54,136 nt of DNA, from positions 1-54,136 of the forward strand of contig JBIOXZ010000086.1 in assembly GCA_044869895.1 (NCBI GenBank), read 5' to 3'. The notes beneath the pieces are model-generated. The model did no database searches. It was not told the origin of the DNA and saw only the letters and a list, made by a program, of their open reading frames with translations. This DNA comes from Actinomycetota bacterium. Its GTDB lineage: Bacteria > Actinomycetota > UBA4738 > HRBIN12. Shown in pieces: positions 10,550 to 48,378 of this stretch; position 1 is the stretch's first letter, and each line of letters starts with the position of its first letter. The position numbers and the translations under genes were made by a program.

Positions 10550-10621
10550 GGCGGTACGACCGATTCTACGCTGGGCCCCTCGGGCGCCCATCATGGAGGG
10601 GGCGAACGAGACGGGGGAAGA

Positions 10622-20703: not shown

Positions 20704-20707
<4 letters not shown>
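19745..20707 (-). CDS. formate dehydrogenase Fe-S subunit, equal to the N-terminal half of an FdsA/FdhF-type alpha subunit (2Fe-2S, 2x4Fe-4S ferredoxin motifs, Mo-bisPGD 4Fe-4S cap)
   Basis: The 2Fe-2S motif is CYLENLTPVNVCRVCVVEV...APAC. The ferredoxin motifs are CILCYKCVEAC and CVYCGNCIGVCP. The cap motif is CPYCGVGCDLELHV...GHLCIKGRFGFEFV (compare E. coli FdhF CPYCASGC...LCLKGYYGWDF). The ORF stops right after the cap. The GTG start overlaps the stop of the NuoE/F-like gene (GTGA). Confidence 0.8.
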
Positions 20708-22551
<1,844 letters not shown>

Positions 22552-22561
22552 CCGACCTCCT

Positions 22562-24499: not shown

Positions 24500-24554
24500 C
24501 GAGCTGGCCTCCTTCCTTCCCGACGAAGCCGATTCTAGTCCTGGGCGTCACGCA

Positions 24555-25409
24555 TCAGGTCAGGGCGATCCGCTCGGGATGCGAGTACACGTTGAACCTG
24601 CCGTCGCGAACGAACCCGACCACGGTCTGGCCCATGCGTTCTGCCAGGTCGACCGCGAGCGATGAGGGCGCCGAGACCGCCGCCACGACGGGGATCCCGG
24701 CGACACCGGCCTTCTGCACGATCTCGAAGGACGCTCGGCCCGAGACCAGGAGGATCCTCTCCGACAGCGGCAGGTCGCCGGCCAAGAAGGCCTCCCCGAC
24801 GATCTTGTCCACCGCGTTGTGACGGCCCACGTCCTCTCGGAGCGACAACAGCTTGCCGGTTGGGGCGAACAGCCCGGCCGCGTGGAGCCCTCCGGTCTGC
24901 TCGAACACCTTCTGGGCCCGGCGAAGCTCGCCCGGCAGGCCCTCGATCACGTCGCGCGCCACCTCCGGGCCCGGACCGATCGAGGCGCACTGCACCTCCA
25001 CGTGCTCCAGGCTCGCCTTCCCACAGATCCCGCACGAGGAGTTCGCGTAGAAGTTTCGGGACAGCGTGCCCGGGTCGAACGGGCGGGCCAGGTTCACCGT
25101 GACCACGTTGTAATGCTGTTCGTCCTGGTCCAGGTCCTCGCAGTAGCTCACCTTTCGGACGTCGTCGCGGGCCCGGATCAGCCCCTCGGTGAACAGGAAC
25201 CCTACGGCGAGGTCGAAGTCGGCGCCTGGGGTCCGCATCGTGACCGCGACCGACACGGCGTCCTGCCCCGGACCCTGGGCCCGGATCTCCATGGGCTCCT
25301 CGGTGGCCAGGCGATCGGCCAGCTCGTGCGCCGCGCCGTCACGGACGGCCAGCACCTTGGCCTGGGTGACATTCCGGCGCAGGGGGATGGCCTGGCCCAC
25401 GGGACCCAT
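24555..25409 (-). CDS. fdhD: formate dehydrogenase accessory sulfurtransferase
   Basis: The sequence reads EEPMEIR...TMRTPG.D.DLA.GFL.TEG...SSCGICGK.S...GG.HAA.LF...EDVGRHNA.DK..G...L.VSGR.SFE.VQKA..AGIP...AVSAPSSLA. Confidence 0.85.
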   Translation of the reverse strand: MGPVGQAIPLRRNVTQAKVLAVRDGAAHELADRLATEEPMEIRAQGPGQDAVSVAVTMRTPGADFDLAVGFLFTEGLIRARDDVRKVSYCEDLDQDEQHYNVVTVNLARPFDPGTLSRNFYANSSCGICGKASLEHVEVQCASIGPGPEVARDVIEGLPGELRRAQKVFEQTGGLHAAGLFAPTGKLLSLREDVGRHNAVDKIVGEAFLAGDLPLSERILLVSGRASFEIVQKAGVAGIPVVAAVSAPSSLAVDLAERMGQTVVGFVRDGRFNVYSHPERIALT

Positions 25410-25494
25410 TATGCGACTCGGGCGGGTCAGGCCGACCGCAGGGTATCCTCACGTGGCGTTTGAACGAGCGGTCAAAATGGAGGCCGTCGGACCG

Positions 25495-27165
25495 ATGAAG
25501 AGCGGGCTCGAGATCGCGCAAGGGGCCCTCCTGCGGCCCATCACCGAGATCGCCGCGGCGGCTGGTATCGAGGAGGGCGAGCTCGAGCCCTTCGGCCGTC
25601 ATCGGGCGAAGGTTTCCCTCTCGGCGATGGAGCGGCTGTCCGGCCGGCCCGACGGGAAATTCGTGGTGACCACGGCCATCACCCCGACGAAGGCCGGCGA
25701 GGGAAAGACCACCACCTCGATCTCGCTCACCCAAGGCCTGGGGAAGATCGGTCAGAAGGTCGTCCTCTGCCTACGGGAGCCTTCGATGGGCCCCGTGTTC
25801 GGCATCAAGGGTGGCGGCACGGGCGGGGGCTACGCCCAGGTGGTGCCGATGGAGGACATCAACCTCCACTTCAACGGCGACTTCCACGCCGTCACCGCGG
25901 CGCACAACCTGCTGTGCGCCGCCCTCGATGCGTCGATCTACTTCGGGAACCCGCTGGGGATCGACCCGGGCACCATCACCTGGCCGAGGACCCTCGACGT
26001 GAACGATCGCGAGCTCCGTTACACGGTGGTCGGGCTCGGCGGCAAGGCGCACGGCGTTCCCCGCGAGAACTCCTTCGTCATCACCGCGGCGTCGGAGATC
26101 ATGGCCGTGCTCGCACTGGCGTCCGATCTCCAGGACCTCCGGACCCGCCTCGGTCGGATCGTGGTCGGGGACACCGTCGAGGGTAAGCCGGTCACCGCCG
26201 AGGACCTCAAGGTCGCGGGGGCCATGGCGGTGGTGATGAAGGACGCGATCAAGCCCAACCTGGTACAGACGCTCGAGGGGCAGCCGGTGCTGATCCACGC
26301 CGGGCCGTTCGGGAACGTCGCCCACGCGAACAACTCGATCGTCGAGGATCGGATCGCCCTCAAGCTCGCCGATTACGTCGTCACGGAGGGCGGTTTCGCC
26401 AGCGACCTCGGGTTCCAGAAGTTCGCCGACATCGTGTGCAGGTTCGGCGGCTTCGTCCCCAATGCCGCCGTGCTCGTCGCCACCGTTCGGGCGCTGAAGT
26501 CCCACGGCGGCATGGCCTTCGAGGAGCTCGGCACCGAGGACCCGGATGCCCTTCGCCGAGGTTCGGAGAACCTGGCGGCGCACATCGACATCGTGAAGGC
26601 GTACGGCCTGCCATGCGTCGTGGCCATCAACCGATTCCCCACCGACACCGACGGGGAGGTGGCCTTGGTCGACGAGCTTGCTACCCAGCTGGGCGCGGAG
26701 CGGGTCGTGGTGAACGACGGGTTCACCCGAGGAGGCGAGGGAGCCCTCGACCTGGCCCGGGCCGTCGTGGAGGCGTGCGAGCGGCCGAGCGGCTTCTCTC
26801 AACTCACACCGCCGGGCGCGCCGATCAAGGAACAGGTCGAGGCCATCGCCACGCGACTGTACGGGGCCGACGGAGTGGCCTATCTGCCGCAGGCCGAGAG
26901 GGACATCGCCCGTATGGAGTCGCTGGGATTCGGGCAGTATCCCGTCTGCATGGCCAAGACCCAGCTCTCCCTGACGCACGACCCCACCGCCCTGAACCGG
27001 CCGAAGGGGTGGCGACTGCCGGTCAGAGGTGTGGTCCCCTCGGCCGGCGCCGGCTTCGTGGTGGTGCTGTGCGGCGACATGCAACGGATGCCCGGGTTGG
27101 GGCGGACCCCGGCCTTCACGAACATCGACATCGACCGGGACGGACGCACCGTCGGGCTCTATTAG
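25495..27165 (+). CDS. fhs: formate--tetrahydrofolate ligase
   Basis: The sequence reads MKSGLEIAQ.A.L.PI.EIA...GI....EP.G..KAK...VTAI.PT.AGEGKTTT...L...L...G, then MEDINLHF.GD.HA, PVL.H.GPF.N.AHG.NS and P.V.A.N.F..DT. I chose the start at the second Met (25495; GGAGG 11 nt upstream). The alternative ATG is at 25477. The upstream part of track ORF 25189.. is antisense to fdhD. Confidence 0.85.
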   Translation: MKSGLEIAQGALLRPITEIAAAAGIEEGELEPFGRHRAKVSLSAMERLSGRPDGKFVVTTAITPTKAGEGKTTTSISLTQGLGKIGQKVVLCLREPSMGPVFGIKGGGTGGGYAQVVPMEDINLHFNGDFHAVTAAHNLLCAALDASIYFGNPLGIDPGTITWPRTLDVNDRELRYTVVGLGGKAHGVPRENSFVITAASEIMAVLALASDLQDLRTRLGRIVVGDTVEGKPVTAEDLKVAGAMAVVMKDAIKPNLVQTLEGQPVLIHAGPFGNVAHANNSIVEDRIALKLADYVVTEGGFASDLGFQKFADIVCRFGGFVPNAAVLVATVRALKSHGGMAFEELGTEDPDALRRGSENLAAHIDIVKAYGLPCVVAINRFPTDTDGEVALVDELATQLGAERVVVNDGFTRGGEGALDLARAVVEACERPSGFSQLTPPGAPIKEQVEAIATRLYGADGVAYLPQAERDIARMESLGFGQYPVCMAKTQLSLTHDPTALNRPKGWRLPVRGVVPSAGAGFVVVLCGDMQRMPGLGRTPAFTNIDIDRDGRTVGLY

Positions 27166-27353
27166 CCGGCGAGCAGCGACCCTCCCTCCACTCGGATCCA
27201 CGCGGCCCGGCTGACCACCTCGTTCCGGTCGAAATCGAAGATCCCTCCGCCCGCGGGGGCCGCCTCCCAGAGCGCCCCGCACTCGGGACAGGACCACAAG
27301 CTCTGCGCTTGAGGCTCCGTGTGCATGGGTGGCGCGCACGTGTGCAACGGCAT
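27162..27353 (-). CDS. hypothetical 63-aa protein with possible zinc-ribbon cysteines
   Basis: The sequence is MPLHTCAPPMH...WSCPECGALWEAAP... with mostly G/C-ending codons. It overlaps the fhs stop convergently by 4 nt. I recognise no family. Confidence 0.35.
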   Translation of the reverse strand: MPLHTCAPPMHTEPQAQSLWSCPECGALWEAAPAGGGIFDFDRNEVVSRAAWIRVEGGSLLAG

Positions 27354-27373
27354 GATTCGACCTCCCGGCTCGA

Positions 27374-27391
27374 AATCACATACCTGTGATT
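27374..27391. promoter_or_regulatory. perfect 7-bp inverted repeat AATCACA-tacc-TGTGATT (candidate operator)
   Basis: This A/T-rich palindrome sits in an otherwise GC-rich 89-nt intergenic gap, 21-38 nt upstream of the ATG of ORF 27162..27353 and downstream of the GcvT-like gene. Confidence 0.3.
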
Positions 27392-27442
27392 CCCGACAGC
27401 CTATCGCACCGGAGGGGCGATGTGGGCGAACGAACCGGAGGA

Positions 27443-28555
27443 TCAGCTGCGAGGCCGGGTCTTCTGCGGGTCGTAGAGGGGAAGGACGTCGACGGTTGCC
27501 GGGACCGTCGACTCCCCCACTGCCACCTCCACGGCGTTCCCTAGGTTCGCCTGGTCGGATCGGAGGACGGCGATCCCGATCTTGCCGTACCTCGGGCTGT
27601 CCGTGGGGCTGGTGAGCACGCCCACCTGCTCGCCCTCTTTCGTCACCGCGGCGCCGTACTCGGGGAGCGCTTCGGCCTCGTACCGGAGGGTCACCAACCG
27701 GTTCGGTGGGGCCTTCGCCAGGTCCTCGAGCGCGTCCCGGCCCAGCGGCTCCCCCGGCGCGTGGAGTTTGACGAACGGGTCGAAGTTGAAGTCGAAAGGA
27801 GATCGCTCGTGCGCCTCGTAGTCGTAGTCCGTGACGATCAGGCCGGCTTCGATGCGAAGGATCTCGATGGCGTCAGCCCCGAACGGCGTGATCCCCGCCT
27901 TGTTCACAACGACGTCCCACAGGTCCTGGGCGTTCGCCGGGTCCCTGAGGAACAGCTCGTACCCGAGCTCGCCCCCGAAGCCCGTACGGGACAGGTAAAC
28001 CGGAACCCCACCCACTTGGACCGGCTGTGGGATGAACCGGAAGTACCCGAGGCCGCTGATGTCTGTCTCGGTCAACTCCTGCACGACGTCTCGAGACCGA
28101 GGTCCGAGGACGCCGAGATGCGGCATCCGGGGGGCGATCCACTCGAACTCCACCCCCAGTCCCTTCAGCGCCTCCTGGAAGTACTCGTCGTGGTCCTTCC
28201 CGTTGGTCATGACCCAGGCGTGGTCCTCCGCCACCTTGAAGACCGTGCCGTCGTCGACCATCAGGCCGTCTTCGTCGAGGAACGCGCCGTACCGAACCTG
28301 TCCCACATCGAGGCCAAGGATGTCGTTGGAATGGACCCGACGGGCGGCCTTCAGCGCGTCCGGCCCCCGGAAGTCCCACTTGTTCAGCGGCGAGACGTCC
28401 CACACGGCCACATCGTCCCGCACGGCGTCGTATTCCTCCCGTACGTTGCCGAAGTTCTCCGTCCACATCCACCCGCCGTCGGCGACGTGCGTGCCGCCGG
28501 CGGCCACGATCACGTCGTGGAACGCGGTCTTCAGGGCCTCTTCCTCCTCGGCCAT
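27443..28555 (-). CDS. aminomethyltransferase-family (GcvT-like) folate-binding protein
   Basis: 370 aa with the GcvT-like pattern: V.DVS...K....GPDA......ND......G...Y......DG...DD......W......SRTG..GE.GYE......FG.....LR.EAG....D. Confidence 0.75.
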   Translation of the reverse strand: MAEEEEALKTAFHDVIVAAGGTHVADGGWMWTENFGNVREEYDAVRDDVAVWDVSPLNKWDFRGPDALKAARRVHSNDILGLDVGQVRYGAFLDEDGLMVDDGTVFKVAEDHAWVMTNGKDHDEYFQEALKGLGVEFEWIAPRMPHLGVLGPRSRDVVQELTETDISGLGYFRFIPQPVQVGGVPVYLSRTGFGGELGYELFLRDPANAQDLWDVVVNKAGITPFGADAIEILRIEAGLIVTDYDYEAHERSPFDFNFDPFVKLHAPGEPLGRDALEDLAKAPPNRLVTLRYEAEALPEYGAAVTKEGEQVGVLTSPTDSPRYGKIGIAVLRSDQANLGNAVEVAVGESTVPATVDVLPLYDPQKTRPRS

Positions 28556-28594
28556 GCGCTCGCCTCCGCTTCCTCGGTGTTCGGGCCTATCGAA

Positions 28595-29179
28595 TCACGA
28601 TCCTGACTCGCCGTTCAACCCGTGCTCGGTCATCACCAGGTCGACCGGACGGTCGCCTCGCCCATGCGGCACTTCATTCACCAGCTGTATGGAGAAACAG
28701 ATGCCGATGGTGAGCGCATCCGGCCGCAGAGCGGCGAGAAACCGATCGTAGAACCCACGGCCGTAGCCGACCCGGTGGCCGGACCCGTCGAAGGCCAGAC
28801 CCGGCACGATGACCACATCGATCTCCTCCGGAGCGACCTTCTCCCCTCCCGCGGGCTCCGTCGCCCCGAACGAGGTGGGTCTCACCCGGTCGCCGGAGCG
28901 ATACGCCACGGCCACGATGTCCCGGCCCTCCACGCGAGGAAGCGCCACACGCCGTCCATCGCGTTCCAGCCGCCCGATGATCGGGGCGGTGTCCACCTCC
29001 GAGCCGAAGGAGGAGAACGCCATGACCGTTGTTGCGTCCGCGACTGCGGGGAGGGCCAATACCTTTCCGGCCACCTCCTCGCTCATCCGCTCACGCTCCC
29101 CGGACGACAGCCCATCCCGGAGGGCCCGGGCTTTCCTCCGCAGCGCCCGCTTCTGCCGCTTCAGATCCGCCGATCTCAC
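28595..29179 (-). CDS. 5-formyltetrahydrofolate cyclo-ligase
   Basis: The sequence reads LKRQKRALRRKARALR...V.AF.S.G.E.DT.P......G..V.LPRV......P....VVIVPGLAFD..G.R.GYG.GFYDRFL. The start is the GTG overlapping the upstream stop (GTGA at 29176-29179). The upstream part of the track ORF is out-of-frame shadow. Confidence 0.8.
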   Translation of the reverse strand: MRSADLKRQKRALRRKARALRDGLSSGERERMSEEVAGKVLALPAVADATTVMAFSSFGSEVDTAPIIGRLERDGRRVALPRVEGRDIVAVAYRSGDRVRPTSFGATEPAGGEKVAPEEIDVVIVPGLAFDGSGHRVGYGRGFYDRFLAALRPDALTIGICFSIQLVNEVPHGRGDRPVDLVMTEHGLNGESGS

Positions 29180-30078
29180 CCTCGGGGCCGGCCGCTCCTG
29201 AGGGCATGCTCGGCGATCAACTCGATCCGGTCTCCGGGACCGGCCGCGACCAGGACGACCCACGAGGCACCCGCGCCTTCCAGGCCGTCGAGCCACCCCG
29301 CCAGGGAGCGGACGCTCCCGGACCACACGTTGGTCTCCAACAGGCCCTTCCTGTCCCGCGCGTCCAGGAGCCGGCTCGCGTCGTCCTCGTCCTCGCCGAC
29401 GAGCACGATGCCCGCCCATGTCGCCGCTACATCCCTGCCCTCGGCGGCCTCCCGCAGCAGGGTCGCTTTGCGGGCGAACTCCGGGATCGACATCCCCCAA
29501 CCATTCCACGCATCGGCCTCTCGCGCGGCGATGCGAACCACCTCGTCGGCGAAGCCACCGACCCAGACCGGAGGACCTCCGGGCGTGACCGGTCGAGGAA
29601 GGAGCGGTCCACTCACGGGGGGGATCCGGCCATCACCGGGCCAGGGACTTCCCGCGAAGAGCGCCTTGACCGCACGGACCGTCTCGACCAGGTGCTCTCG
29701 CCGTTCCCCTTTCTCCAGGTACGTCAGGCCGTATGCCTGGTGCTCCGGCTTGTCGATGGGATCCCCGGTTCCGATGCCGAGCACCATGCGCCCGCCGCTG
29801 ATGTCGTCCACTCCCGCGGCCATCTTGGCCAGGAGTCCGGCGGGGCGGATTGAGGCCCTGGTCACCAGGGTGCCGACAGCGACCCGCTCCGTCGCTGCCG
29901 CCACCGCGGACAGCGAGGCGAATGCCTCGAGCGAGGGCCGGTCGGTCGGCGCCCCCGGGGGAAAGAAGTGGTCGAAGGCGAAGACCCCGTCGTAGCCAAG
30001 CGCTTCCGCCCGCTGGGCGAACGATGCCACCCGTTCGGGATCCCCCGAGAACAAGGGCAGGATCAGGCCGACGTTCAT
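29176..30078 (-). CDS. luciferase-like monooxygenase (LLM) family oxidoreductase, possibly F420-dependent
   Basis: The sequence reads MNVGLILP...AE.LGYDGVF.FDH......E.F..L.A.AA.T.R...GTLV......A.LAK.AA..D..S.GR..LG.G.G. I trimmed the start to Met26 of the track ORF. Confidence 0.7.
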   Translation of the reverse strand: MNVGLILPLFSGDPERVASFAQRAEALGYDGVFAFDHFFPPGAPTDRPSLEAFASLSAVAAATERVAVGTLVTRASIRPAGLLAKMAAGVDDISGGRMVLGIGTGDPIDKPEHQAYGLTYLEKGERREHLVETVRAVKALFAGSPWPGDGRIPPVSGPLLPRPVTPGGPPVWVGGFADEVVRIAAREADAWNGWGMSIPEFARKATLLREAAEGRDVAATWAGIVLVGEDEDDASRLLDARDRKGLLETNVWSGSVRSLAGWLDGLEGAGASWVVLVAAGPGDRIELIAEHALRSGRPRG

Positions 30079-30106: not shown

Positions 30107-31060
30107 TCATCCCCCCAGCTCCTCAAGGGCGAGCACCGCCGCTCCGACGGCACCGGCGTCGTTCCCCAGCCGCGCGCCGACGAGCGGAACCGGGGGCCTG
30201 TGCTCGTACCCCTCGACCGCCTCGACGAACGCGGCCTCCGCCGGGCGGATCACCAGTTCCCCCGCCTCCACCACCCCGCCCCCGATCACGACGATCTGCG
30301 GGTCGAGCACGTTCACCAACCCGGCGATCCCCTCCCCGAGTCGCCTCCCGACCTGGCTCAGGATACGGATGGCCACGTCATCGCCGGCCTTGGCTGCCCT
30401 GGTCACGGTCTCGCCGGTCACGTGCATGGGGTCGTGGTCCGCGAGCTCGGCGATGAGCGACTGGGGACGGTCGGCCGCTGCTTCCCGTCCCAGGCGCCCG
30501 ATCGCCTGTCCCGAGGCCACCTGCTCGAAGCACCCGCGGTTGCCGCAGCCGCAGAGCGGCCCGTCGGGTTCGACGATGATGTGCCCGATCTCCGCGGCGA
30601 ACCCATGGGCTCCACGGAACAGGCGGCGGCCAGCCACGATCCCTCCCCCGATGCCGGTCCCCACCGTCACCAGCAGCATGTGCCGGTACCCACGGCCGGC
30701 GCCGAATCGATACTCGCCCCACGCGGCCACGTTCGCGTCGTTGTCGACCTGGCACGGTAGCCCGAGCGCGTCACTCATACGCTCGCCGATCGGGAGCTCT
30801 CGCCATGCCAGGTTCGGTGCGAACCGCAGGACACCGCGGTTCGCGTCCACCATGCCGGCGGCACCCACGCCGATCGCCACCACCTGGGACTCGAGCAATC
30901 CCTTGGCCGCCTCGATCATCGCCGCGATGGTCGCCTCCGGGTCATCCGCGGGCGTCACCGAGCGCGAGCGAGCCAGGATGGACCCATCCCTGCTCACCCG
31001 AAGGGCCTCGATCTTCGTGCCCCCAACGTCGATGCCGAGCGCCTGGGCCGCCTCCGACAC
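30107..31060 (-). CDS. ROK-family glucokinase
   Basis: The sequence reads LGIDVGGTKI...VGVGAAG.VD...DNDANVAAWGE...VTVGTGIGGGIV...G..G.A.E.GH, with the ROK zinc motif CGCGNRGCFE. Confidence 0.85.
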   Translation of the reverse strand: MSEAAQALGIDVGGTKIEALRVSRDGSILARSRSVTPADDPEATIAAMIEAAKGLLESQVVAIGVGAAGMVDANRGVLRFAPNLAWRELPIGERMSDALGLPCQVDNDANVAAWGEYRFGAGRGYRHMLLVTVGTGIGGGIVAGRRLFRGAHGFAAEIGHIIVEPDGPLCGCGNRGCFEQVASGQAIGRLGREAAADRPQSLIAELADHDPMHVTGETVTRAAKAGDDVAIRILSQVGRRLGEGIAGLVNVLDPQIVVIGGGVVEAGELVIRPAEAAFVEAVEGYEHRPPVPLVGARLGNDAGAVGAAVLALEELGG

Positions 31061-31072
31061 GTCCCGCCCTCT

Positions 31073-32212
31073 CTAGAAGCGAAGCAGCGCGCCGATGCCG
31101 CCGTATCGGGCCAGCCCATCGGGATGAACGATCGTCTCCACCCGGCTGCCTTGCCGCACCGCCCGGGCCACCGCCTCTTCGACCACATCGGCCACCGGCT
31201 CCATCGTCGAGCCGCACGCCGGGCACCTCGTTCCTCGTTCCGTGAGCCGGCCGCACGTGGGGCAGGAGAATCCCGGGGCGGACAGATCGAGGCCGACGAG
31301 GATCTCCGCCGCGCGCCCTTCCGCTACGGCCGCGAGCGTACCCGGGAGGCCGGTCACGGCCTTGCCCCCGGACTCGGCGGCCGCCCGCAGGGCTTCCACC
31401 TTCGCGGCCTCCTTCGTTCGCTCCTGCTCCTCCTCCACCTCCAGGCATCGGGCGGCCACCTCGTCCAGGGTCGCCGTCATGGTGAGGGTGACGCTGGCCC
31501 GGATCCGCTCCCGAAGGTACGGATGCAAGGTGTGTTCGAGATCCAGATGCGCCTCCGCCGGGCCTGCCAGCGCCAGAGAGTCGAACGGGCTCGTCTTGAG
31601 GAGCCGGAACAGCGCCTCGGCCACTCGCTTCAGGTGTCGTTGGCGGTGGTCGTCCACGTGACGCTGCATCCGCATCTGGGACCAGCCACCCTGGTCGTGC
31701 CGGCCCGGGACGTCGTCGATGAAGTGGGTGACCTCCTCGACCCGTCCGAGCTCTGAGAGGAACAGCCGGGCCTTCTCGTAGTCGACGAGGGCCAGGCACA
31801 TCGGGCGGTGGGTCTCCAGCACCTGCTCCAGCGGGAGGACGTCGGCCGCCGAGGCCACTGTGGCGCGATCGCGAACCGGCCGGGGGAGGCGGACCTCCTG
31901 CCACAATCCGGCGGCATTGGCCGAGAACAACGCCAGACCTCGGGTGTCCCCCCGTTCGAACTCGTCGCGCACGAAGGAGCCGATCGCTTCGAGGTCACCC
32001 ATGACCGAGCGCAACGCCTCCTTCGACAGCCCTTTGCCTTCCGCTTGGGCCCGACCCCGGCGCAGCAGGTCGTCCAAACGAACCTCGTAGTCGGACTTGC
32101 GAGGGTACCGGCGCCCGTCCACCGTGAGATAGACCGACGTGATGGGGATGCCATCGGGGTTCCATTGCACCAGCTTTCGCACCACAGAGTGGTCGACGTT
32201 GGTCATGCTCAT
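31073..32212 (-). CDS. eRF1/Pelota-superfamily protein (bacterial aeRF1-like), GGQ replaced by GGW, with a Cys4 zinc-ribbon insert in the C-terminal domain
   Basis: The central segment VPGRHDQGGWSQMRMQRHVDDHRQRHLKRVAEALFRLL...LALAGPAE aligns with human eRF1 [36 protein letters not shown]...LVLAGSAD. The C-terminal ...YGGIGALLRF parallels eRF1 GFGGIGGILRY. The insert is CPTCGRLTERGTRCPACG. The start at Met62 of the track ORF overlaps the upstream stop as ATGA. Confidence 0.75.
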   Translation of the reverse strand: MSMTNVDHSVVRKLVQWNPDGIPITSVYLTVDGRRYPRKSDYEVRLDDLLRRGRAQAEGKGLSKEALRSVMGDLEAIGSFVRDEFERGDTRGLALFSANAAGLWQEVRLPRPVRDRATVASAADVLPLEQVLETHRPMCLALVDYEKARLFLSELGRVEEVTHFIDDVPGRHDQGGWSQMRMQRHVDDHRQRHLKRVAEALFRLLKTSPFDSLALAGPAEAHLDLEHTLHPYLRERIRASVTLTMTATLDEVAARCLEVEEEQERTKEAAKVEALRAAAESGGKAVTGLPGTLAAVAEGRAAEILVGLDLSAPGFSCPTCGRLTERGTRCPACGSTMEPVADVVEEAVARAVRQGSRVETIVHPDGLARYGGIGALLRF

Positions 32213-32472
32213 GCGATCTCGATCCTCTCGAGCTTCGTCGCCGCGCCGCCGGTGTCGGCGACCCGCGTGTCCAACAGCGTCTTCGCCGCAAGGAGGAACT
32301 CCCGGGTGGCGACCAGGAGGTGATCCACCACCTCCGGGCTGGACCGGTTCACCGTCGCAAGGGCGAATCCGATGGGGCAGAACGTCACGGGACACACGTG
32401 CTCGCCCTGTTGATCCCCATCACTCGTTGAAGCGGCTGCGCTCCCGCGTCTTCCGGACCGTCCATCAGACAT
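32209..32472 (-). CDS. 87-aa hypothetical protein with CPVTFCP motif
   Basis: The sequence is MSDGRSGRRGSAAASTSDGDQQGEHVCPVTFCPIGFALATVNRSSPEVVDHLLVATREFLLAAKTLLDTRVADTGGAATKLERIEIA. Its ATG overlaps the ArsA stop by 8 nt and its TGA overlaps the ATG of the eRF1-like gene (ATGA). Only the last 87 codons of track ORF 32209..32943 are taken. Confidence 0.55.
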   Translation of the reverse strand: MSDGRSGRRGSAAASTSDGDQQGEHVCPVTFCPIGFALATVNRSSPEVVDHLLVATREFLLAAKTLLDTRVADTGGAATKLERIEIA

Positions 32473-33688
32473 TCGCTCTCCCCCTCCGGTCGTTCCGGGC
32501 GTCCCGCGAGGAACCCGGCTCGGGCTCCTTGGAGAACGCGATCTCCAGATGGTCCTCGACGAAGTTCGCCCCTCGGACCTCCAGGCGCTTGAGCGTTTGA
32601 GGCAGGATGAGGTTCCGCTTGTACGAACCGACCCGGACGAACAGCTCGTCCCCCCGGCGGTGGATGTCCATGTCGTCACGAGAGACGAACGGCAGCCGCA
32701 TGGTGAGGGAGTAACCGTTCCCCCTGCGGCGAACCCTGATGGGATGGTCCCGATACAGGATCTCGGTGACGTCGCCGTCCCCGTACACCTCCTGCGCCAT
32801 GGCTTCCAGCAACTCGACGCCGACCATCTCCCGATCGAACAGCCGGGACGTGAGGATGGGCACCGGCTCGAAGGACTCGCGCACCGTCTGCAGGTGCTCA
32901 GCCTGGATGTCCTTCCATGTACCGAAGTACGGGTCGGTGACATCGTCGGGGATGATGCGGTTCACGACCACCGCGTCGACGCGATAACCGAACAGCCCCA
33001 GATACGTGTACGTTCGCCTGGCCTCCGCGATGACCATCTTCTCCGGGTTGACCACCAGCCGGACGGTCGACGTGCGCTCGTCGGTCAGGATCCGTCGCAC
33101 CGCCTCCAGGTTGTGGTGCAGCCGCTCAACGGCACCGAAGAACTGATCCCCGGCGATGGGGAGCGTGGTGATCTTCGTCATGAGTGGGCGGACGGCCTTC
33201 ACCACCCGGCGCTCCACCGGGAAGATCCTCTCGATGTACCAGTTCATCACCTCGGGAAGCGAGAGGAGGCGAAGCGTCTCCGCCGTGGGTGCGCAGTCCA
33301 CCACCAGGAGGTCGTACCTGCCCTCGTCGACGTGGCGCTTGACGTCGATCAGGCTGAAGATCTCGTCCAGTCCGGGGATGACGGAGAGCTCCTCTGCCTG
33401 GATGGTCTCGACCCCGGCCCAGTTCATCAATTGGATGAAGTACTCCTGGATCTCCCGCCAGTTGGTTTCCAGCCGGGCCTGGGCGTCGATCTGCTCGGCC
33501 CACAGGCTCCGAGCGATCGGGGTGGCCTGGTCCACGACGTCGCGGTCGAAGGAATCGGCGAGCGAATGTGCGGGGTCGGTACTCATGATCAACGTCCGGG
33601 CACCGGCTCCAGCCGCCTTCACGGCGGTCGCGGCGGCAACGGTGGTCTTGCCCACGCCGCCCTTTCCCGTGAAGAGCAGGACTCGCAT
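32465..33688 (-). CDS. ArsA/Get3-family P-loop ATPase
   Basis: The deviant Walker A is FTGKGGVGKTTVAAA and the family signature is STDPAHSLADSF. Length is 407 aa. Confidence 0.85.
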   Translation of the reverse strand: MRVLLFTGKGGVGKTTVAAATAVKAAGAGARTLIMSTDPAHSLADSFDRDVVDQATPIARSLWAEQIDAQARLETNWREIQEYFIQLMNWAGVETIQAEELSVIPGLDEIFSLIDVKRHVDEGRYDLLVVDCAPTAETLRLLSLPEVMNWYIERIFPVERRVVKAVRPLMTKITTLPIAGDQFFGAVERLHHNLEAVRRILTDERTSTVRLVVNPEKMVIAEARRTYTYLGLFGYRVDAVVVNRIIPDDVTDPYFGTWKDIQAEHLQTVRESFEPVPILTSRLFDREMVGVELLEAMAQEVYGDGDVTEILYRDHPIRVRRRGNGYSLTMRLPFVSRDDMDIHRRGDELFVRVGSYKRNLILPQTLKRLEVRGANFVEDHLEIAFSKEPEPGSSRDARNDRRGRANV

Positions 33689-33777: not shown

Positions 33778-34221
33778 CTACGCGAGCTCGACCCGCCGCT
33801 TCAATCCCTCGAGCGCGTTCTCGATCACGCGTTTCGCCCCCTGGGTCCTGACGAATCCCGGGAGCAGGACCCCGAGCTCGACGCTGAGCCGGTAGGTGAC
33901 CTCGGTCTCCCGATCGTCCAGCTCGTTCAGCAGGTATTCCCCGCGGATGTTGCTGACGGCCCCTCGCGCCTCCTTCGTCACCCAGGAGACACCGGCGTCG
34001 CCGGGCGCGTAGCGGTAGGCGAGCGTGTACGACGCCCGTCCGAGGACTGGCACGTCCACTTCGAAGGCGACCTCCGTCCCCACCCCGCCTGCCCCCCGCT
34101 GGAGCACCCGTGCCGTCTTCACGTCCGCCCACTCCGGGTAGGCCTCGTAGTCCGTGATGACGTCCATGACCTCGGCCGCAGATGCCTCGATGACGATGGA
34201 CCCCTCGGCGTGCTCCCCCAT
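33778..34221 (-). CDS. SRPBCC-superfamily (polyketide cyclase/dehydrase-like) protein
   Basis: 147 aa starting MGEHAEGSIVIEASAAEVMDVITDYEAYPEW... with a START/Bet v1-like pattern. The upstream 200 codons of the track ORF are shadow. Confidence 0.65.
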   Translation of the reverse strand: MGEHAEGSIVIEASAAEVMDVITDYEAYPEWADVKTARVLQRGAGGVGTEVAFEVDVPVLGRASYTLAYRYAPGDAGVSWVTKEARGAVSNIRGEYLLNELDDRETEVTYRLSVELGVLLPGFVRTQGAKRVIENALEGLKRRVELA

Positions 34222-34244
34222 GGCGTGAGGAATGGTAACGGCCG

Positions 34245-34910
34245 CTACCGGCCGCGGATCGCAGGAAGGGCGATCGCGGTGGCCAGGCCCACCGCGGCCA
34301 GGATGAGGCCGACCAGCCCCCACAGGAGCTTTCGCGGGCCGATGAGCGGGTCGATCCCCGAGGCCAGGCGGTAGGCGTCGACCGCCGAGGTCGACCAGGC
34401 CACGAAGCTGGCCACCAGGAACAGCGAGAAGAGCGACGCGGTCGAGCCCAGGCCGCCCCGACCGAGCCGCGACACCACCAGGAGCAACAACGTGCCGAAC
34501 GGGACGAGGAACGTCACCATCCGGGCGACGCCGTCCAGTGAGCGGCCGCACTTCCACTGCCCCAGCCCCGGGAAGAGGAGCGACCACAGGGCCGCCGTCT
34601 TCGGGTCGATCTCTGGACGCCGCTCCGGTTCCTGGAACAGCCGGGCGAACGGCGTGCCGCATGCCACGCAGAGGTTCATGGCGATGGGATTCGCATTGCC
34701 GCACACCGGACACGGCCACGTCGGCTCTCCCTCGGAACGCCGCGGCGGGGCCTGGACCTTCTCCCGCGGGACCGACCGGGGGGCTTCCAGGGACGCGTAA
34801 CACTGTCCGCACCAGTCCGCGTCGACCGCGGTGAGCGCACCACAGCTGGGACAGCGACGTTCCACGCTCATCGCGCTCATCACACGACCTATTTCGGCGC
34901 GGATCGCCAT
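34245..34910 (-). CDS. double zinc-ribbon membrane protein
   Basis: Two zinc-ribbon motifs are present: CPSCG...CGQC and CPVCG...CVACG. Three to four TM helices follow (LWSLLFPGLGQW, MVTFLVPFGTLLLLVV, LFSLFLVASFVAW, LLWGLVGLILAAVGLATAIAL). The start is ATG 34910 (alternative 34880). Confidence 0.65.
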   Translation of the reverse strand: MAIRAEIGRVMSAMSVERRCPSCGALTAVDADWCGQCYASLEAPRSVPREKVQAPPRRSEGEPTWPCPVCGNANPIAMNLCVACGTPFARLFQEPERRPEIDPKTAALWSLLFPGLGQWKCGRSLDGVARMVTFLVPFGTLLLLVVSRLGRGGLGSTASLFSLFLVASFVAWSTSAVDAYRLASGIDPLIGPRKLLWGLVGLILAAVGLATAIALPAIRGR

Positions 34911-34947
34911 CCGATGAAGCCCCAGCCGTGCCTCGCGGAAAGCCGGC

Positions 34948-36081
34948 TCAGGCCTCGGCTTCCCGGAGCCACCATCCGAGCTGCGCCGCGGCCCGGGGCC
35001 ACGTGTAGAAACGCTCGACCCGCTCCCGGCCGGCCATGCCCATGTGCTCCGCCAGCGCGCGGTCCTGGAGCAGCCCGGAGACGGCGTCCGCGACTTGTTC
35101 CACGTTCCGCCCGTCCACCAGGATCCCGGTCTCACCGTCGACCACGGATTCCCGTGCACCCCCGGAGTCCCCCACGACGACCGGTCGTCCACACGCGGCG
35201 GCCTCGATGAAGACGTTGCCCCACCCCTCGACCTCCAGGCCGCCGAGACGAGTGCGGCACGGCATGGCGAACACGTCACCCACCGCGTAGTAGCTCGGCA
35301 GGTCCGCTTCGGAAACCTGTCCGGCGAAAGCGACGGATCCGGAAGGGGCAAGCGCCGCCAGACGCTCCAGCGTCGAGCGATGCGGGCCGTCGCCCACGAC
35401 CAGCAGCACGGCGTCGGGCACGCGCCTTCGGACGAATGCCATCGCCCGGATCAAGACGTCCTGGCCCTTCCGGGCCACCAGCCGGCTGACGCACGCCACC
35501 ACCGGCCGGCCGTCCAGTCCGTGGCTTTGGCGGACCTGATCGGTGGAGAGGCCGGGACGGAACGCCTCGATGTCGGCGCCGGGATACATCACGGATACCG
35601 GCACGCCATCGGGCACCGCGGTCCGCACCACGCGCGCGATGAACGCGCTGCACATCACGGGAACACGGGCGGCCCGCGACGTCATGTATGCAAGTCCGGC
35701 GTGGGCTCCGGGTAAGAGCGAGAGCCAGTAGTCGAACCCGTGGGCGGCCACGAGGTACGGGACGCCCCGGCTCGCCAGGCTCGGTCCCATGGCCGCCAGG
35801 GGCATGGCATCCCCGAACACCACCACCTGCGCACCCGATCCATCGACGAGCTCCGCCAGCATCCGTCGCGTCGCCGGGGTGGGCCACAGGAATCGATGAG
35901 GGGCTCGAACGATGCGGTAGGCCTCGACGGCGTCGAAGGCGTCCGTCCCTTCCCCGGAGGGGGCGAGTACGGTCATCCGATCCGCCGGTAGCTCGCGGAC
36001 CAACGCGTGAAGCGTCCGCTGGATCCCTCCCACCCGCGGGGGAAAGTCGTTCGTGACCAGCAGCGTCCGCGGGATCTCCAC
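34948..36081 (-). CDS. GT4-family glycosyltransferase (PimB-like mannosyltransferase type)
   Basis: The sequence reads LLVTNDFPPRVGGIQ..., with the C-terminal EX7E-type region GLEVEGWGNVFIEAAACGRPVV. Length is 377 aa. Confidence 0.8.
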   Translation of the reverse strand: MEIPRTLLVTNDFPPRVGGIQRTLHALVRELPADRMTVLAPSGEGTDAFDAVEAYRIVRAPHRFLWPTPATRRMLAELVDGSGAQVVVFGDAMPLAAMGPSLASRGVPYLVAAHGFDYWLSLLPGAHAGLAYMTSRAARVPVMCSAFIARVVRTAVPDGVPVSVMYPGADIEAFRPGLSTDQVRQSHGLDGRPVVACVSRLVARKGQDVLIRAMAFVRRRVPDAVLLVVGDGPHRSTLERLAALAPSGSVAFAGQVSEADLPSYYAVGDVFAMPCRTRLGGLEVEGWGNVFIEAAACGRPVVVGDSGGARESVVDGETGILVDGRNVEQVADAVSGLLQDRALAEHMGMAGRERVERFYTWPRAAAQLGWWLREAEA

Positions 36082-36102
36082 GGCCGCCTATCCTCTCAGA
36101 CG

Positions 36103-36885
36103 GTGGATGCAGACAGGCTCGAGGACCAGGTCGACGCGCTCGACGAGCGCCGGGCGTTCGTCGACGGCGCTCGCCTGCGGGCCGTCGAGGTGACGGGAAG
36201 CGACGCCGGCCGGTGGTTGAACGATCTGGTGACGGCGTCGGTGGAGGACATCCCCCCAGGTGGCACCGCCCGCTCACTCCTCCTCACACCCACCGGCCGT
36301 GTGCGAGCCGATTTCCACATCGTTCGAACCGACGGTGCGTTCCTCCTCGTCCAGGAGCCGGACCAACCCGCCGGCATCGACGACCTGCTCCGGCCGTACG
36401 TGCTGTCATCCGATGTGGCCGTGCAACGCGTCGCCGGCACTCCCATCGTCCTCCTGCCCTCGGATCGCGGATGGAGGGTGACACGCGCCGCCGGCGACGG
36501 TGCCGTGGAGGCGAGCCCGGAGGCCGGCGAGGTTTGGCGGATCCGGCGAGGGGTGCCCCGGTTCCCCTCGGACCTCGACGAGGAATCGCTTCCCGCCGAA
36601 GCCGGGTTGGAGTACCTCATCGACTTCACCAAGGGATGCTTCCTGGGCCAGGAGGCGGTGGCCAAGGTCCGGAACCTGGGTCACCCACCACGGGTCGTCC
36701 TGGCCCTCCGGGCCGCCGTCCCCGTTGGGTCCGGTGAACCGGTCGTCGCCGATGGCCGGGATGTCGGCGCGGTCTCGAGCGTGGCGCCGCCCCGCGACGG
36801 GTTCGCCCTGCTCGCGCGGGTCCGGTGGGATGCGAGGACGCGTCCGCTGACCACGGCCTCGGGTGCCCAGCTCACGCCGGTGTGA
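36103..36885 (+). CDS. ygfZ: YgfZ/GcvT-like folate-binding protein
   Basis: The sequence reads V.GSDA..WLNDL......LLL.P.G......W...R...G.P.......P.EAGL....I.F, with the YgfZ signature TKGCFLGQE. GTG 36103 is the first start outside the divergent GT4 gene. Confidence 0.7.
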   Translation: MDADRLEDQVDALDERRAFVDGARLRAVEVTGSDAGRWLNDLVTASVEDIPPGGTARSLLLTPTGRVRADFHIVRTDGAFLLVQEPDQPAGIDDLLRPYVLSSDVAVQRVAGTPIVLLPSDRGWRVTRAAGDGAVEASPEAGEVWRIRRGVPRFPSDLDEESLPAEAGLEYLIDFTKGCFLGQEAVAKVRNLGHPPRVVLALRAAVPVGSGEPVVADGRDVGAVSSVAPPRDGFALLARVRWDARTRPLTTASGAQLTPV

Positions 36886-36893
36886 GCTCGTTC

Positions 36894-36926
36894 CGGCCGC
36901 CCGTTACTACGGCGGTCGCGACTTTT
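36894..36926 (+). terminator. candidate intrinsic terminator after ygfZ
   Basis: An 8-bp stem forms between CGGCCGCC (36894-36901) and GGCGGTCG (36911-36918, one G-U pair), with a 9-nt loop. It is followed by cgaCTTTTc. Confidence 0.35.
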
Positions 36927-37030
36927 CAAGACTACATTTGGCCCTCGGCCGCGGACGAGAATGGGTGTCGCATGCTCGAACGGCCGCCCGGCCGCTGGTC
37001 AGACTCGATTTGGACCTCGGGGGGGATCGA

Positions 37031-37312
37031 GTGGTGAGCAAGGAGCGCACGAGCGGCATCGACCTCCAGACACTTCCTCGAAACCCTTCACCGCCGGACA
37101 TGTGGCAGGACAAGGCGGCCTGCCATGGCCTGGACCCCGACGTGTTCTTCCCCACCTCCGAGGAGGAGGCGGGGCCGGCGCTCGCCTACTGCTCGGGCTG
37201 CGGCATCCGGGAGATGTGCCTGGCCTGGGCGCTGAAGAACGGCGAACGCTACGGGGTGTGGGGCGGCCTGACGGAGCAGCAACGCCGCCGTCTGGTCCGG
37301 TTCGTGGCCTGA
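37031..37312 (+). CDS. whiB: WhiB-family [4Fe-4S] transcriptional regulator
   Basis: The sequence reads W.DKAAC.G.DPDVFFP...YCSGCGIREMCL.WAL.NGERYGVWGGLTE..RRRL. The GTG at 37031 follows GGGGGA. An alternative WhiB1-like start is MWQDKAAC at 37100. Confidence 0.8.
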   Translation: MVSKERTSGIDLQTLPRNPSPPDMWQDKAACHGLDPDVFFPTSEEEAGPALAYCSGCGIREMCLAWALKNGERYGVWGGLTEQQRRRLVRFVA

Positions 37313-37360
37313 GCATCCCGGCTGGTCACCTCGGGGCCGGGCCGCCCATACTGGCTGGCC

Positions 37361-38404
37361 ATGAGCGAAGTCACGGTGAGAGCGGCGGCGCCGCTTCGCA
37401 TCAGCTTCGTCGGGGGTGGAACCGACTTCCCCCACTGGTATGAGCCACACGGGGGAGCGGTCCTTTCCGCGACGATCGATCATCACGCCGAGGCCACGCT
37501 TCGGCCCAGGGACGACGATCGCATCCGGATCCGATCCCTCGATCTGCACCAGGTGGTCCAATACCCCCTGCACGAGTCGCCCGAGTACGACGGTGTGATG
37601 GACCTGCCGAAGGCGGCCATCGACCGGGTCGGCGTTCACCGGGGGGTCGACGTCGAGGTGCGCTGCGATGCGCCGCCAGGAAGCGGCCTCGGCGGCTCCT
37701 CGGCGGTGGTCACCGCGATGGCCGGCGCGCTCGCCGCCTTCGCCGGTCGTTCGTTCACCGCGGACGAGCTGGCTCGGACGAGCTATGCGATCGAACGTGA
37801 GGACCTGGGGATCGCCGGAGGCTGGCAGGACCAGTACGCCGCGGCCTACGGCGGGTTCAACCTCCTCGAGTTCTCCGCGCGGCGGGTCGATGTCATCCCG
37901 GTTCGCGCGGAGCCCGAGGTGCTCCGACGGCTGCAGGCGAACCTGCTCCTCTGCTACACGGGGCAGGTCCGGGCGAACCTCGGGCTCATCGATACCCAGA
38001 TCCGGCTGTTCCGGGAGGGGCGCGAGGAGACGATGCAGGGGATGAAGCAGCTCCAGGCGATGGCCTACGAGATGCGGGATGCCCTGGAGTCAGGGGACCT
38101 GGACAGCCTGGGCGAGATGCTCCACGGGGCGTACGAGAGCAAGAAGCGGATGAATCCACACATCGCTGAAGGCACGAGGATCGAGCGCCTGTTCGACGCG
38201 GCCACGAAGGCCGGAGCGACCGGCGGAAAGATCTGCGGGGCCGGCGGTGGCGGATACCTCCTCCTGTATTGCCGGCAAGACCGCCAACCCGAGGTCCGGG
38301 CCGCGCTCGAAAGCCTGGGAGGCAGGCTGGCCTCGTTCGCCTTCACGACAACCGGGATCGAGGCTCAGGTGGCGAATGTGGTGTGGAGGCCCGCGCGCCG
38401 ATGA
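37361..38404 (+). CDS. hddA: GHMP-family D-glycero-alpha-D-manno-heptose-7-phosphate kinase
   Basis: The sequence reads APLRISF.GGGTD.P.....GG.VL.ATI, with GHMP motif PPGSGLGGSSA and GWQDQY.AA.GG. It is operonic with gmhB and gmhA. Confidence 0.75.
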   Translation: MSEVTVRAAAPLRISFVGGGTDFPHWYEPHGGAVLSATIDHHAEATLRPRDDDRIRIRSLDLHQVVQYPLHESPEYDGVMDLPKAAIDRVGVHRGVDVEVRCDAPPGSGLGGSSAVVTAMAGALAAFAGRSFTADELARTSYAIEREDLGIAGGWQDQYAAAYGGFNLLEFSARRVDVIPVRAEPEVLRRLQANLLLCYTGQVRANLGLIDTQIRLFREGREETMQGMKQLQAMAYEMRDALESGDLDSLGEMLHGAYESKKRMNPHIAEGTRIERLFDAATKAGATGGKICGAGGGGYLLLYCRQDRQPEVRAALESLGGRLASFAFTTTGIEAQVANVVWRPARR

Positions 38405-48191: not shown

Positions 48192-48378
48192 TCTGCCCCG
48201 GCCGGGCGTCGCCCGGCCGCCTCCTCAGGGTTTCGGGGATTCGCATCTAGCGTAGCGCGCGGTGGCCGAACCAACAGCCGCACCTGGTCCCTTCGTGCTC
48301 CTGCCGTTCATCTCCCGCCGGACGCGCTAGGCTCCCGGAGCCCGATTGGGTCGGCCACCGGACATCAGGAGGACCTCC

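Follow-up and report, generated by a model that had tools for sequence, protein, structure and literature searches.

A Get3-like ATPase with a small partner protein beside a candidate family-10 rescue factor in an actinobacterial operon

Do overlapping genes in a compact bacterial operon encode one machine, or separable units that happen to be neighbours? This question is raised by three co-directional minus-strand genes in a 54,136-bp stretch of DNA (69% GC; hereafter the window) from an uncultured soil lineage of Actinomycetota. The first gene (32465..33688) encodes a 407-residue ATPase of the Get3/ArsA fold with a C-terminal alpha-crystallin (ArsA_HSP20) domain, the second (32209..32472) an 87-residue partner protein of Pfam family PF27253 ('AF_1253'), referred to here as the mini-protein, and the third (31073..32212) a 379-residue aeRF1-like protein of baeRF-1 family 10 with N, M and C domains. 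The ATG of the mini-protein gene lies inside ATGTCTGA, giving an 8-nucleotide overlap with the ATPase stop, and the baeRF gene starts within ATGA, giving a 4-nucleotide overlap with the mini-protein stop. Both overlaps were verified in the sequence and agree with the gene boundaries of a preliminary description of this DNA, and all of the motifs listed there were found (GKGGVGKTT, DPAHS, CPVTFCP, GGWSQ, CPTC...CPAC and the C-terminal GGIGALLRF). GC content at third codon positions was 0.78-0.88 in all three genes, which is the codon-position pattern of this genome's real genes. That description had proposed a functional module on the basis of the tight coupling and, from a GGW in place of GGQ, a factor that cannot hydrolyse peptidyl-tRNA. 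We give roughly even chances to a different arrangement, namely two adjacent and separable units: a Get3-like ATPase with its PF27253 partner, and a family-10 codon-independent release or rescue factor.

Synteny was scanned in one genome per GTDB species, which yielded 79 loci, and the triad was examined in the 55 of these in which the baeRF protein was at least 43% identical and the upstream DNA was long enough. This analysis revealed the order SRPBCC, ArsA with HSP20 domain, mini-protein, baeRF, ROK and LLM in 55/55 testable loci. The ArsA and mini-protein genes overlapped (-8 or -4) in 40 of the 55 loci, and the mini-protein and baeRF genes (-4) in 35. The same order was present on an independent metagenome contig carrying precomputed Pfam labels. 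All genomes with the triad belonged to uncultured Actinomycetota, mostly from soil. The neighbourhood check suggested in the preliminary description thus identified a triad that is kept in one actinobacterial clade, in all 55 of its testable species genomes. The SRPBCC, ArsA, mini-protein, baeRF and ROK block was also seen on a 4.8-kb contig labelled Candidatus Velamenicoccus archaeovorus (Omnitrophota; L013, JBHGAT010000163.1); its ArsA is 81% identical to that of the window and the contig is probably mis-binned.

The lead to a lineage that lacks the baeRF gene came from two long matches in an exhaustive search, which ran from the mini-protein into ROK-like sequence. Five contigs from this related lineage (L082-L086) together carry genes for SIS, GHMP kinase, WhiB, YgfZ-like, GT4, SRPBCC, ArsA with HSP20 domain, mini-protein, ROK, LLM and 5-FTHF cyclo-ligase proteins, and the baeRF gene is absent from all five. 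ArsA and the mini-protein are adjacent in four of them (L082, L083, L084 and L086), the fifth (L085) starting too near the mini-protein gene. Here the mini-protein stop overlaps or closely abuts the ROK start; the ROK/LLM and LLM/cyclo-ligase junctions show 4-nucleotide overlaps, as does the cyclo-ligase/RNase T junction in three contigs. The mini-proteins of these contigs keep every conserved feature of the family, including the C-terminal tail (FEKIDIG). The reverse situation was found in 20 distant family-10 loci from Gaiellales, Thermoleophilia, Solirubrobacterales and Chloroflexota (29-40% identity), which keep the M-domain loop motif. No ArsA or mini-protein gene was identified near any of these 20 loci, 16 of which had more than 1.3 kb of upstream DNA, and their neighbours were unrelated to one another. 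Within the window itself, the functionally unrelated LLM oxidoreductase (29176..30078, minus strand) and 5-FTHF cyclo-ligase (28595..29179, minus strand) genes are joined by a 4-nucleotide overlap (GTGA). Because the same synteny exists without baeRF, with the mini-protein gene abutting ROK, and because overlaps occur across unrelated genes, we conclude from gene content that ArsA and the mini-protein are a stable pair, that the baeRF gene is separable from them, and that start/stop overlaps in these genomes are a general matter of operon packing and a poor indicator of shared function. The step from tight coupling to a functional module is weakened by the baeRF-less synteny, by the lone family-10 genes and by the LLM/cyclo-ligase overlap.

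These data bear directly on an integrated three-part machine, in which the ATPase and mini-protein would deliver the baeRF protein to ribosomes or take over the released, possibly hydrophobic, chain, comparable to Vms1 with Cdc48. The constant ArsA, mini-protein and baeRF order, with start/stop overlaps in most species genomes, is what such a machine predicts, and baeRF proteins of the ArsA-linked clade have a basic N-domain loop of their own and a Cys4 ribbon. In addition, one transcript-derived contig of 684 nucleotides from a relative covers all three junction regions (the ArsA 3' end, the mini-protein gene and the baeRF 5' end); DNA carry-over is possible for this contig. However, the identical extended synteny occurs without baeRF and with the mini-protein gene overlapping ROK, family 10 stands alone in other lineages, and the ROK, LLM and folate genes of the operon are joined equally tightly. 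No fusion proteins were detected among 572 representatives of the mini-protein family, and conservation inside one vertically related clade is weak functional evidence. We therefore regard the integrated machine as unlikely and a functional trio of any kind as a minority possibility. A specific version, in which the family-10 GxxQ loop would free stalled chains and PF27253 would act as an adaptor that passes them to a Get3-type holdase or targeting ATPase, appears less probable again. Two points weigh against separability: the clade-specific N-domain loop and Cys4 ribbon could reflect co-adaptation, or shared ancestry, and the baeRF-less genomes could encode the factor elsewhere. The markers disagree on whether baeRF was lost in the related lineage or inserted once in the triad clade. 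ArsA identities and a neighbour-joining tree (no support values) put the baeRF-less group within the triad clade, LLM puts it outside, and ROK favours neither.

The assignment of the third protein to the eRF1 fold, made in the preliminary description from alignments with eukaryotic eRF1, was supported by three independent methods. In Pfam searches the protein scored 96.3 bits against baeRF_family10 (PF18854; gathering threshold 27.1), the best of the aeRF1-clan models, with weaker matches to acVLRF1 (next best, 46.6 bits), baeRF families 2, 3 and 12, and eRF1_2. A profile built from 21 homologues and searched against the PDB matched the Balon protein Msmeg1130 over its full length (1.9e-14) and the M and C domains of aRF1/eRF1 (1e-10 to 1e-11). 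The AlphaFold2 model (pLDDT 72.7, pTM 0.67) was closest in Foldseek to Balon 8v9l (TM 0.74-0.75, E 1e-22), followed by aRF1/eRF1 and then Pelota/Dom34; these full-length matches to Balon, aRF1, eRF1 and Pelota (E 1e-22 to 1e-6) identify a three-domain aeRF1 protein. Close homologues are named 'Vms1/Ankzf1 family peptidyl-tRNA hydrolase' by NCBI. The N domain aligns with that of Balon and not with that of aRF1, and the NIKS motif is absent from the protein. No relative of the baeRF protein was found in viral contigs. The earlier remark that bacterial aeRF1 families are essentially uncharacterised does not hold, as Balon has ribosome-bound structures (PMC10901736).

We then come to the question of whether this protein can be catalytic, which centres on the M-domain loop P169-H185, PGRHDQGGWSQMRMQRH (31658..31708, minus strand). 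The loop contains G175 and G176 (31685..31690), W177 (31682..31684) and Q179 (31676..31678). Profile alignment to archaeal aRF1 pairs GGwaQmRmqR with GGQSQRRYER and so places W177 at the classical catalytic Gln; a mis-registered motif in the preliminary description is thereby ruled out. Conservation was examined in 78 family-10 sequences, down to about 30% identity. Position 177 was W in 63 sequences, R in 14 and L in one, while residue 179 was always Gln. The family-wide motif is GRH[DE]QGG-x-[SA]-Q, of fixed length, and D166, V168, P169, R171, H172, Q174, G175, G176 and Q179 are invariant, so that residues 166-179 hold nine of the 14 positions that never vary across the family. No other window of about 20 residues in the protein is as well conserved as 166-186 (0.876 versus 0.585 overall). 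Thus, the replacement of Gln by Trp stands as a matter of position, but GGW does not stand as a motif, given that position 177 varies and the invariant element is GG-x-[SA]-Q.

The arrangement G176-x-x-Q179 is a GxxQ context, the same as that of the essential Q295 of Vms1, which is required for release (PMC7026593); the related ANKZF1 cuts off the 3'-CCA (PMC7026593). Burroughs and Aravind single out family 10 as a baeRF-1 family that keeps a conserved Gln and could be an active hydrolase, and report that active families have a constrained loop length whereas Gln-less families have poorly conserved, length-variable loops (PMC6514570). As the loop is the most conserved stretch in the 78 homologues and GxxQ is retained, loss of catalysis is unsupported, and the earlier claim that the protein cannot hydrolyse peptidyl-tRNA is left without support by this Vms1-like context (PMC7026593) and by the flagging of family 10 as probably active (PMC6514570). 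The invariant GG and the loop as a whole provide a stronger argument for catalysis than Q179. We conclude that family-10 baeRF-1 is probably a codon-independent, catalytically competent A-site factor.

Several observations weigh against this conclusion. By position, W or R177 occupies the catalytic Gln site of aRF1/eRF1, and Q179 aligns with a Gln of the non-catalytic Balon protein Msmeg1130 (GQMREQR; Msmeg1130 aligns ERAGQ, with no GG). Q179 may therefore be structural and is by itself no proof of catalysis. The AlphaFold2 model gives the M-domain loop low confidence, followed by a helix that starts at residue 179. The closest solved structure in Foldseek is a hibernation factor, and we know of no experiment on family 10.

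Some of these points are what would be expected of a non-catalytic, Balon-type hibernation factor that under stress sits in the A site of ribosomes, idle or translating, and releases no peptide. The top sequence and structure matches in the PDB are the Balon proteins Msmeg1130 and Rv2629, over their full length; NIKS is missing, Trp or Arg stands at the classical catalytic position, and the QMRxQR helix start is common to Msmeg1130. In contrast, the scores of the protein are far from the cutoffs of the NCBIfam Balon families NF052288, NF052289 and NF052287 (59 vs 480, 51 vs 320 and 24 vs 330, respectively). Balon families have no GG and poorly conserved loops of variable length (PMC6514570, PMC10901736), whereas the GG-x-x-Q loop is the most conserved element here. 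A zinc ribbon replaces Balon's beta-hairpin that binds EF-Tu, and no HPF/RaiA gene lies nearby. On balance, a hibernation role seems doubtful, though it deserves more weight than any other alternative raised here.

Outside the M-domain loop, two elements of the baeRF protein differ between ArsA-linked and unlinked family members. The N-domain loop V31-K39 (VDGRRYPRK; 32096..32122, minus strand) is specific to the ArsA-linked clade, where it reads V/I-D-G-R-R-x-P-R-K; in unlinked family-10 proteins the site reads L-D-P-x-x-x-P-T, and ADP of Balon Msmeg1130 aligns there. The zinc ribbon of the C domain (C317-x2-C320 ... C330-x2-C333; 31214..31264, minus strand) had been described as an insertion, but a C-domain ribbon is an ancestral feature of the superfamily (PMC6514570) and not new. 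C317, C320 and C330 are invariant in the 78 sequences, and residue 333 is Cys in 57/58 ArsA-linked proteins and Asp in 16/20 unlinked ones.

For the second unit, then, our preferred reading is a codon-independent rescue factor. The family-10 protein would bind the ribosomal A site, by homology to Balon, eRF1 and Pelota, and would do so independently of a stop codon, since its N domain is Balon-like and has no NIKS. The GxxQ loop would reach the peptidyl-transferase centre and, on stalled ribosomes, set the nascent chain free, either hydrolysing the ester or cleaving the tRNA 3' end in the manner of Vms1. A role as the primary release factor is unlikely because baeRF-1 proteins never displace the classical bacterial RF1/RF2 (PMC6514570).

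The mini-protein is the second member of the other unit, and the preliminary description had left room for an open reading frame that is not translated. PF27253 is a very recent Pfam accession carried by 1,024 homologues of the mini-protein, with precomputed matches on homologues up to 80% identical to it. The family is small, with 572 representatives at 50% identity in an exhaustive profile search (E <=1e-3). An N-terminus that is variable and of low complexity precedes a conserved core of about 60 residues, in which C27, V29, C32, P33, P46, H51, L52, A55, R57, E58, L61, A62 and R70 are invariant. These include the Cys-x4-Cys-Pro element (32374..32394, minus strand). The C-terminal tail, LERIEIA in the window (32212..32232, minus strand), follows the pattern L-E-[RK]-[ILV]-x-[IVL]-x-COOH, which ends 175/175 of the sequences examined. 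The ratio of nonsynonymous to synonymous substitutions (dN/dS) was about 0.96 for the N-terminus, against about 0.47 for the core. In the AlphaFold2 prediction the N-terminus is disordered, residues 33-43 and 46-73 form a helical hairpin (pLDDT about 95) and the C-terminal tail is extended. Long PF27253 matches were frameshifted read-throughs or unrelated chimeras, and fusions of the mini-protein to the ATPase or baeRF were absent from the 572 representatives. A divergent 215-residue PF27253-like protein (P0363), with CAVCPIG (Cx2C) replacing Cx4C and long acidic N- and C-terminal extensions, was also observed; the family may extend past the ArsA-linked clade.

That the 87-codon frame is nonfunctional as a protein, and merely a spacer or translational-coupling device between two real genes, is highly improbable. 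It had no match in the NCBIfam and PADLOC libraries or in the Pfam copy used, which has no PF27253 model; its model had no fold match in the PDB by Foldseek; and there is no proteomic evidence for the product. Against a spacer stand the reading frame and 13 invariant residues kept at 33-70% identity, the C-terminal motif at the end of every sequence, a core dN/dS of about half the N-terminal value, the cataloguing of the family by Pfam, the confidently predicted hairpin, and the position of the gene beside the ATPase even where the downstream gene differs. The homologues, the invariant residues, the tail and the core dN/dS together mark the mini-ORF as a real gene.

Its partner, the ATPase, comprises an ArsA_ATPase domain (Pfam, 303 bits; about 32774..33688, minus strand) and an ArsA_HSP20 alpha-crystallin domain (77 bits; about 32534..32719, minus strand), and exceeds the cutoff of TIGR00345 (GET3/ArsA/TRC40; 266 vs 135 bits). 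The best PDB sequence match was 3zq6 (2.6e-51), which we take to be an archaeal Get3 homologue, and Nostoc All4481/3igf matched at 6e-26. The P-loop GKGGVGKTT and the switch I motif DPAHS are invariant in 50 ATPase orthologues; switch II is fixed as DCAPTAETLRLL in the same set and departs from the DTAPTGHT signature. There is no CxxC motif, the sole cysteine being C132 in switch II, and the protein therefore lacks the CxxC of the zinc-bridged dimer of eukaryote-type Get3. The single domain, the alpha-crystallin domain, the missing CxxC and the nucleotide site agree with four features of bacterial 'group 6' Get3-like proteins, a group also marked by a TRC40 insert/hydrophobic groove, and on these four the architecture would fit that group (PMC6593721, PMC10248533). 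Three other assignments were rejected. For the arsenical pump ArsA (TIGR04291) the score was 105 vs 650 bits, the protein is single-domain with the signature DCAPTAE, and no ars genes lie nearby. Matches to BagAB (Rv3679/Rv3680) were weak and N-terminal (52 and 47 bits vs cutoffs of 400 and 521). For the Get3d/NosAFP equivalog (NF050088) the score was 162 vs 325 bits; an alpha-crystallin domain is present, with active-site motifs intact and not degenerate.

For the first unit, we propose a Get3-like SIMIBI ATPase with an alpha-crystallin domain and a dedicated PF27253 partner that would bind it. Small heat-shock proteins (sHSPs) use I-x-I motifs to dock into the alpha-crystallin beta4/beta8 groove. 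Since the ATPase carries an alpha-crystallin domain, the preferred contact is an sHSP-style insertion of the invariant C-terminal I-x-I tail of the mini-protein into this groove. The Cys-x4-Cys and His residues of the mini-protein may form a metal or redox site, and the pair may serve hydrophobic clients as a chaperone or holdase. Docking is proposed by analogy with sHSPs, and it is also called into question by the Get3d alpha-crystallin domain, which is without typical sHSP oligomerisation features (PMC10248533).

Both units appear to be embedded in a long, tightly packed and vertically inherited housekeeping operon. The SRPBCC (Polyketide_cyc2) gene (33778..34221, minus strand; Pfam and synteny) lies 89 nucleotides upstream of the ATPase gene in the window and directly upstream of it in all related loci, the baeRF-less ones included. 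This gene, with its lipid-binding fold, may belong with the ATPase. The ROK-family kinase gene (30107..31060, minus strand; Pfam and synteny) begins 12 nucleotides past the baeRF stop, and the LLM oxidoreductase and 5-FTHF cyclo-ligase genes continue the co-directional string. Pfam matches confirmed the SRPBCC, GT4 and ROK neighbours named in the preliminary description; the membrane protein with two CxxC pairs was seen in translation and had no Pfam match. A larger lineage-conserved block was observed at 33778..38404, and also in L084 and L086, with genes for GHMP kinase, WhiB, a YgfZ/GcvT-like protein, GT4, the double-zinc-ribbon membrane protein, SRPBCC and ArsA. A scan of 28.5-37.5 kb detected no promoter or terminator, which is uninformative for a high-GC actinobacterium. 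RNA evidence consists of assembled contigs from related organisms, with even coverage over all genes, and the 684-nucleotide metatranscriptome contig is in weak agreement with co-transcription and silent on translation.

Elsewhere in the window the DNA is ordinary core chromosome, with genes for thiamine and purine-type enzymes, a PknB-type kinase with PASTA domains, two phosphofructokinases, a histidine kinase, a subtilase, a folate/one-carbon cluster, a thiolase, an aquaporin, a 2-oxoacid:ferredoxin oxidoreductase and a universal stress protein-Rieske protein. No HPF/RaiA, mobile-element or defence gene was identified in the window, and a search of the entire window against Rfam gave no match. 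PADLOC gave no significant match for the three proteins and their neighbours, and a reading of the locus as a conflict system is therefore unsupported. GC content is even throughout, with only a mild drop to 0.652 across the ATPase region.

Further features of the window were recorded. A molybdopterin oxidoreductase gene (22562..24499, minus strand) is split by a single in-frame TGA at 24251..24253, in the context NIDSCNRT-TGA-HAPSVVGL. As this TGA sits at the canonical selenocysteine/Cys position of formate dehydrogenase alpha, the gene probably encodes a selenoprotein and is probably not a pseudogene; a hairpin after the TGA folds no better than shuffled sequence (z = -0.25), which leaves a SECIS element unconfirmed. 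Around this putative selenocysteine formate dehydrogenase lies a one-carbon/folate cluster (20704..29200) with a NuoF-like subunit (20704..22626), a formate-THF ligase (25189..27165), a GcvT-like aminomethyltransferase (27443..28555) and the 5-formyl-THF cyclo-ligase (28595..29179). In a 353-residue protein (48346..49407, plus strand), three stretches match universal stress protein domains and a Rieske [2Fe-2S] domain stands at the C-terminus; such an architecture is uncommon. Two adjoining open reading frames of the phosphofructokinase family (8334..9602 and 9479..10594; 8334..10594, minus strand) overlap by about 120 nucleotides as called.

To our knowledge, only the non-catalytic Balon type has been studied among bacterial aeRF1 homologues. 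Because an invariant GG-x-x-Q loop sits in a full three-domain protein, family 10 is the strongest candidate in bacteria for a release or rescue factor of archaeal origin that is active and needs no stop codon. The alpha-crystallin Get3-like ATPase with its obligate small partner, which carries an sHSP-like I-x-I tail and a Cys/His site, offers a concrete interaction to probe, and lineages with and without baeRF in otherwise identical operons provide a natural comparison for cooperation. If the three proteins did form a rescue machine, it would parallel the Vms1-Cdc48 step in a prokaryote and, for the first time in bacteria, link a Get3-family chaperone to the ribosome. If they do not cooperate, the locus cautions that start/stop overlaps in compact actinobacterial operons need not mean shared function.

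Like the ATPase, Get3d and group 6 proteins (PMC10248533, PMC6593721; PDB 3igf) have one Get3 domain, a C-terminal alpha-crystallin domain and no CxxC zinc motif. Get3d of Nostoc and Arabidopsis has degenerate sites, whereas the P-loop and switch I are intact here; the ATPase domain is nearer to 3zq6 than to Nostoc 3igf by the E-values given above, and its switch II is DCAPTAET. The ATPase also has a dedicated PF27253 partner, and none was found described for Get3d. In the literature searched, we came across no account of ArsA being paired with PF27253 or of this pair lying next to family 10. For the baeRF protein, nothing contradicts membership of family 10 (PF18854; PMC6514570), with which it shares the three-domain architecture, the conserved catalytic-loop Gln and the C-domain zinc ribbon. 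The main text of that study mentions HPF as the only association of baeRF-1 families and describes neither the ArsA/PF27253 neighbourhood nor the clade-specific N-domain loop.

Balon of P. urativorans, with Msmeg1130 and Rv2629 (PMC10901736; 8v9l, 8v9j, 8v9k, 8rdv), is the closest solved structure and PDB sequence match. Both are bacterial aeRF1 homologues with an N domain that has no NIKS and a post-loop helix starting QMRxQR. Balon has no GG or GGQ and a lasso loop outside the catalytic centre, whereas the baeRF protein has the invariant GG-x-x-Q loop; at the insert position where Balon has its C-domain beta-hairpin, used in A-site binding with EF-Tu(GDP), the baeRF protein has the Cys4 zinc ribbon. 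It also differs from Balon in having no RaiA/HPF neighbour in the window, and the Balon NCBIfam families were not reached. With aRF1/eRF1 the protein shares the alignment of M and C domains, the GG, the Arg-rich helix, the C-terminal GGIGxxLR[FY] and the position of the zinc ribbon. It differs in lacking the codon-reading motifs NIKS and YxCxxxF and in having GGW/R and not GGQ, and it scored 67 bits against the aRF1/eRF1 equivalog TIGR03676 (cutoff 234.7). In Vms1/ANKZF1 and acVLRF-1/aVLRF-1, as in the baeRF protein, the Gln is shifted away from the GG (GxxQ in Vms1, GGxSQ in acVLRF-1/aVLRF-1). The acVLRF1 model of NCBIfam (NF041024) gave 20.8 against a cutoff of 125, while that of Pfam (PF18859) passed its cutoff with a weaker match than family 10. 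In VLRF-1 proteins, which act on split large subunits, the N domain, the C domain or both have been lost, whereas the baeRF protein retains all three domains.

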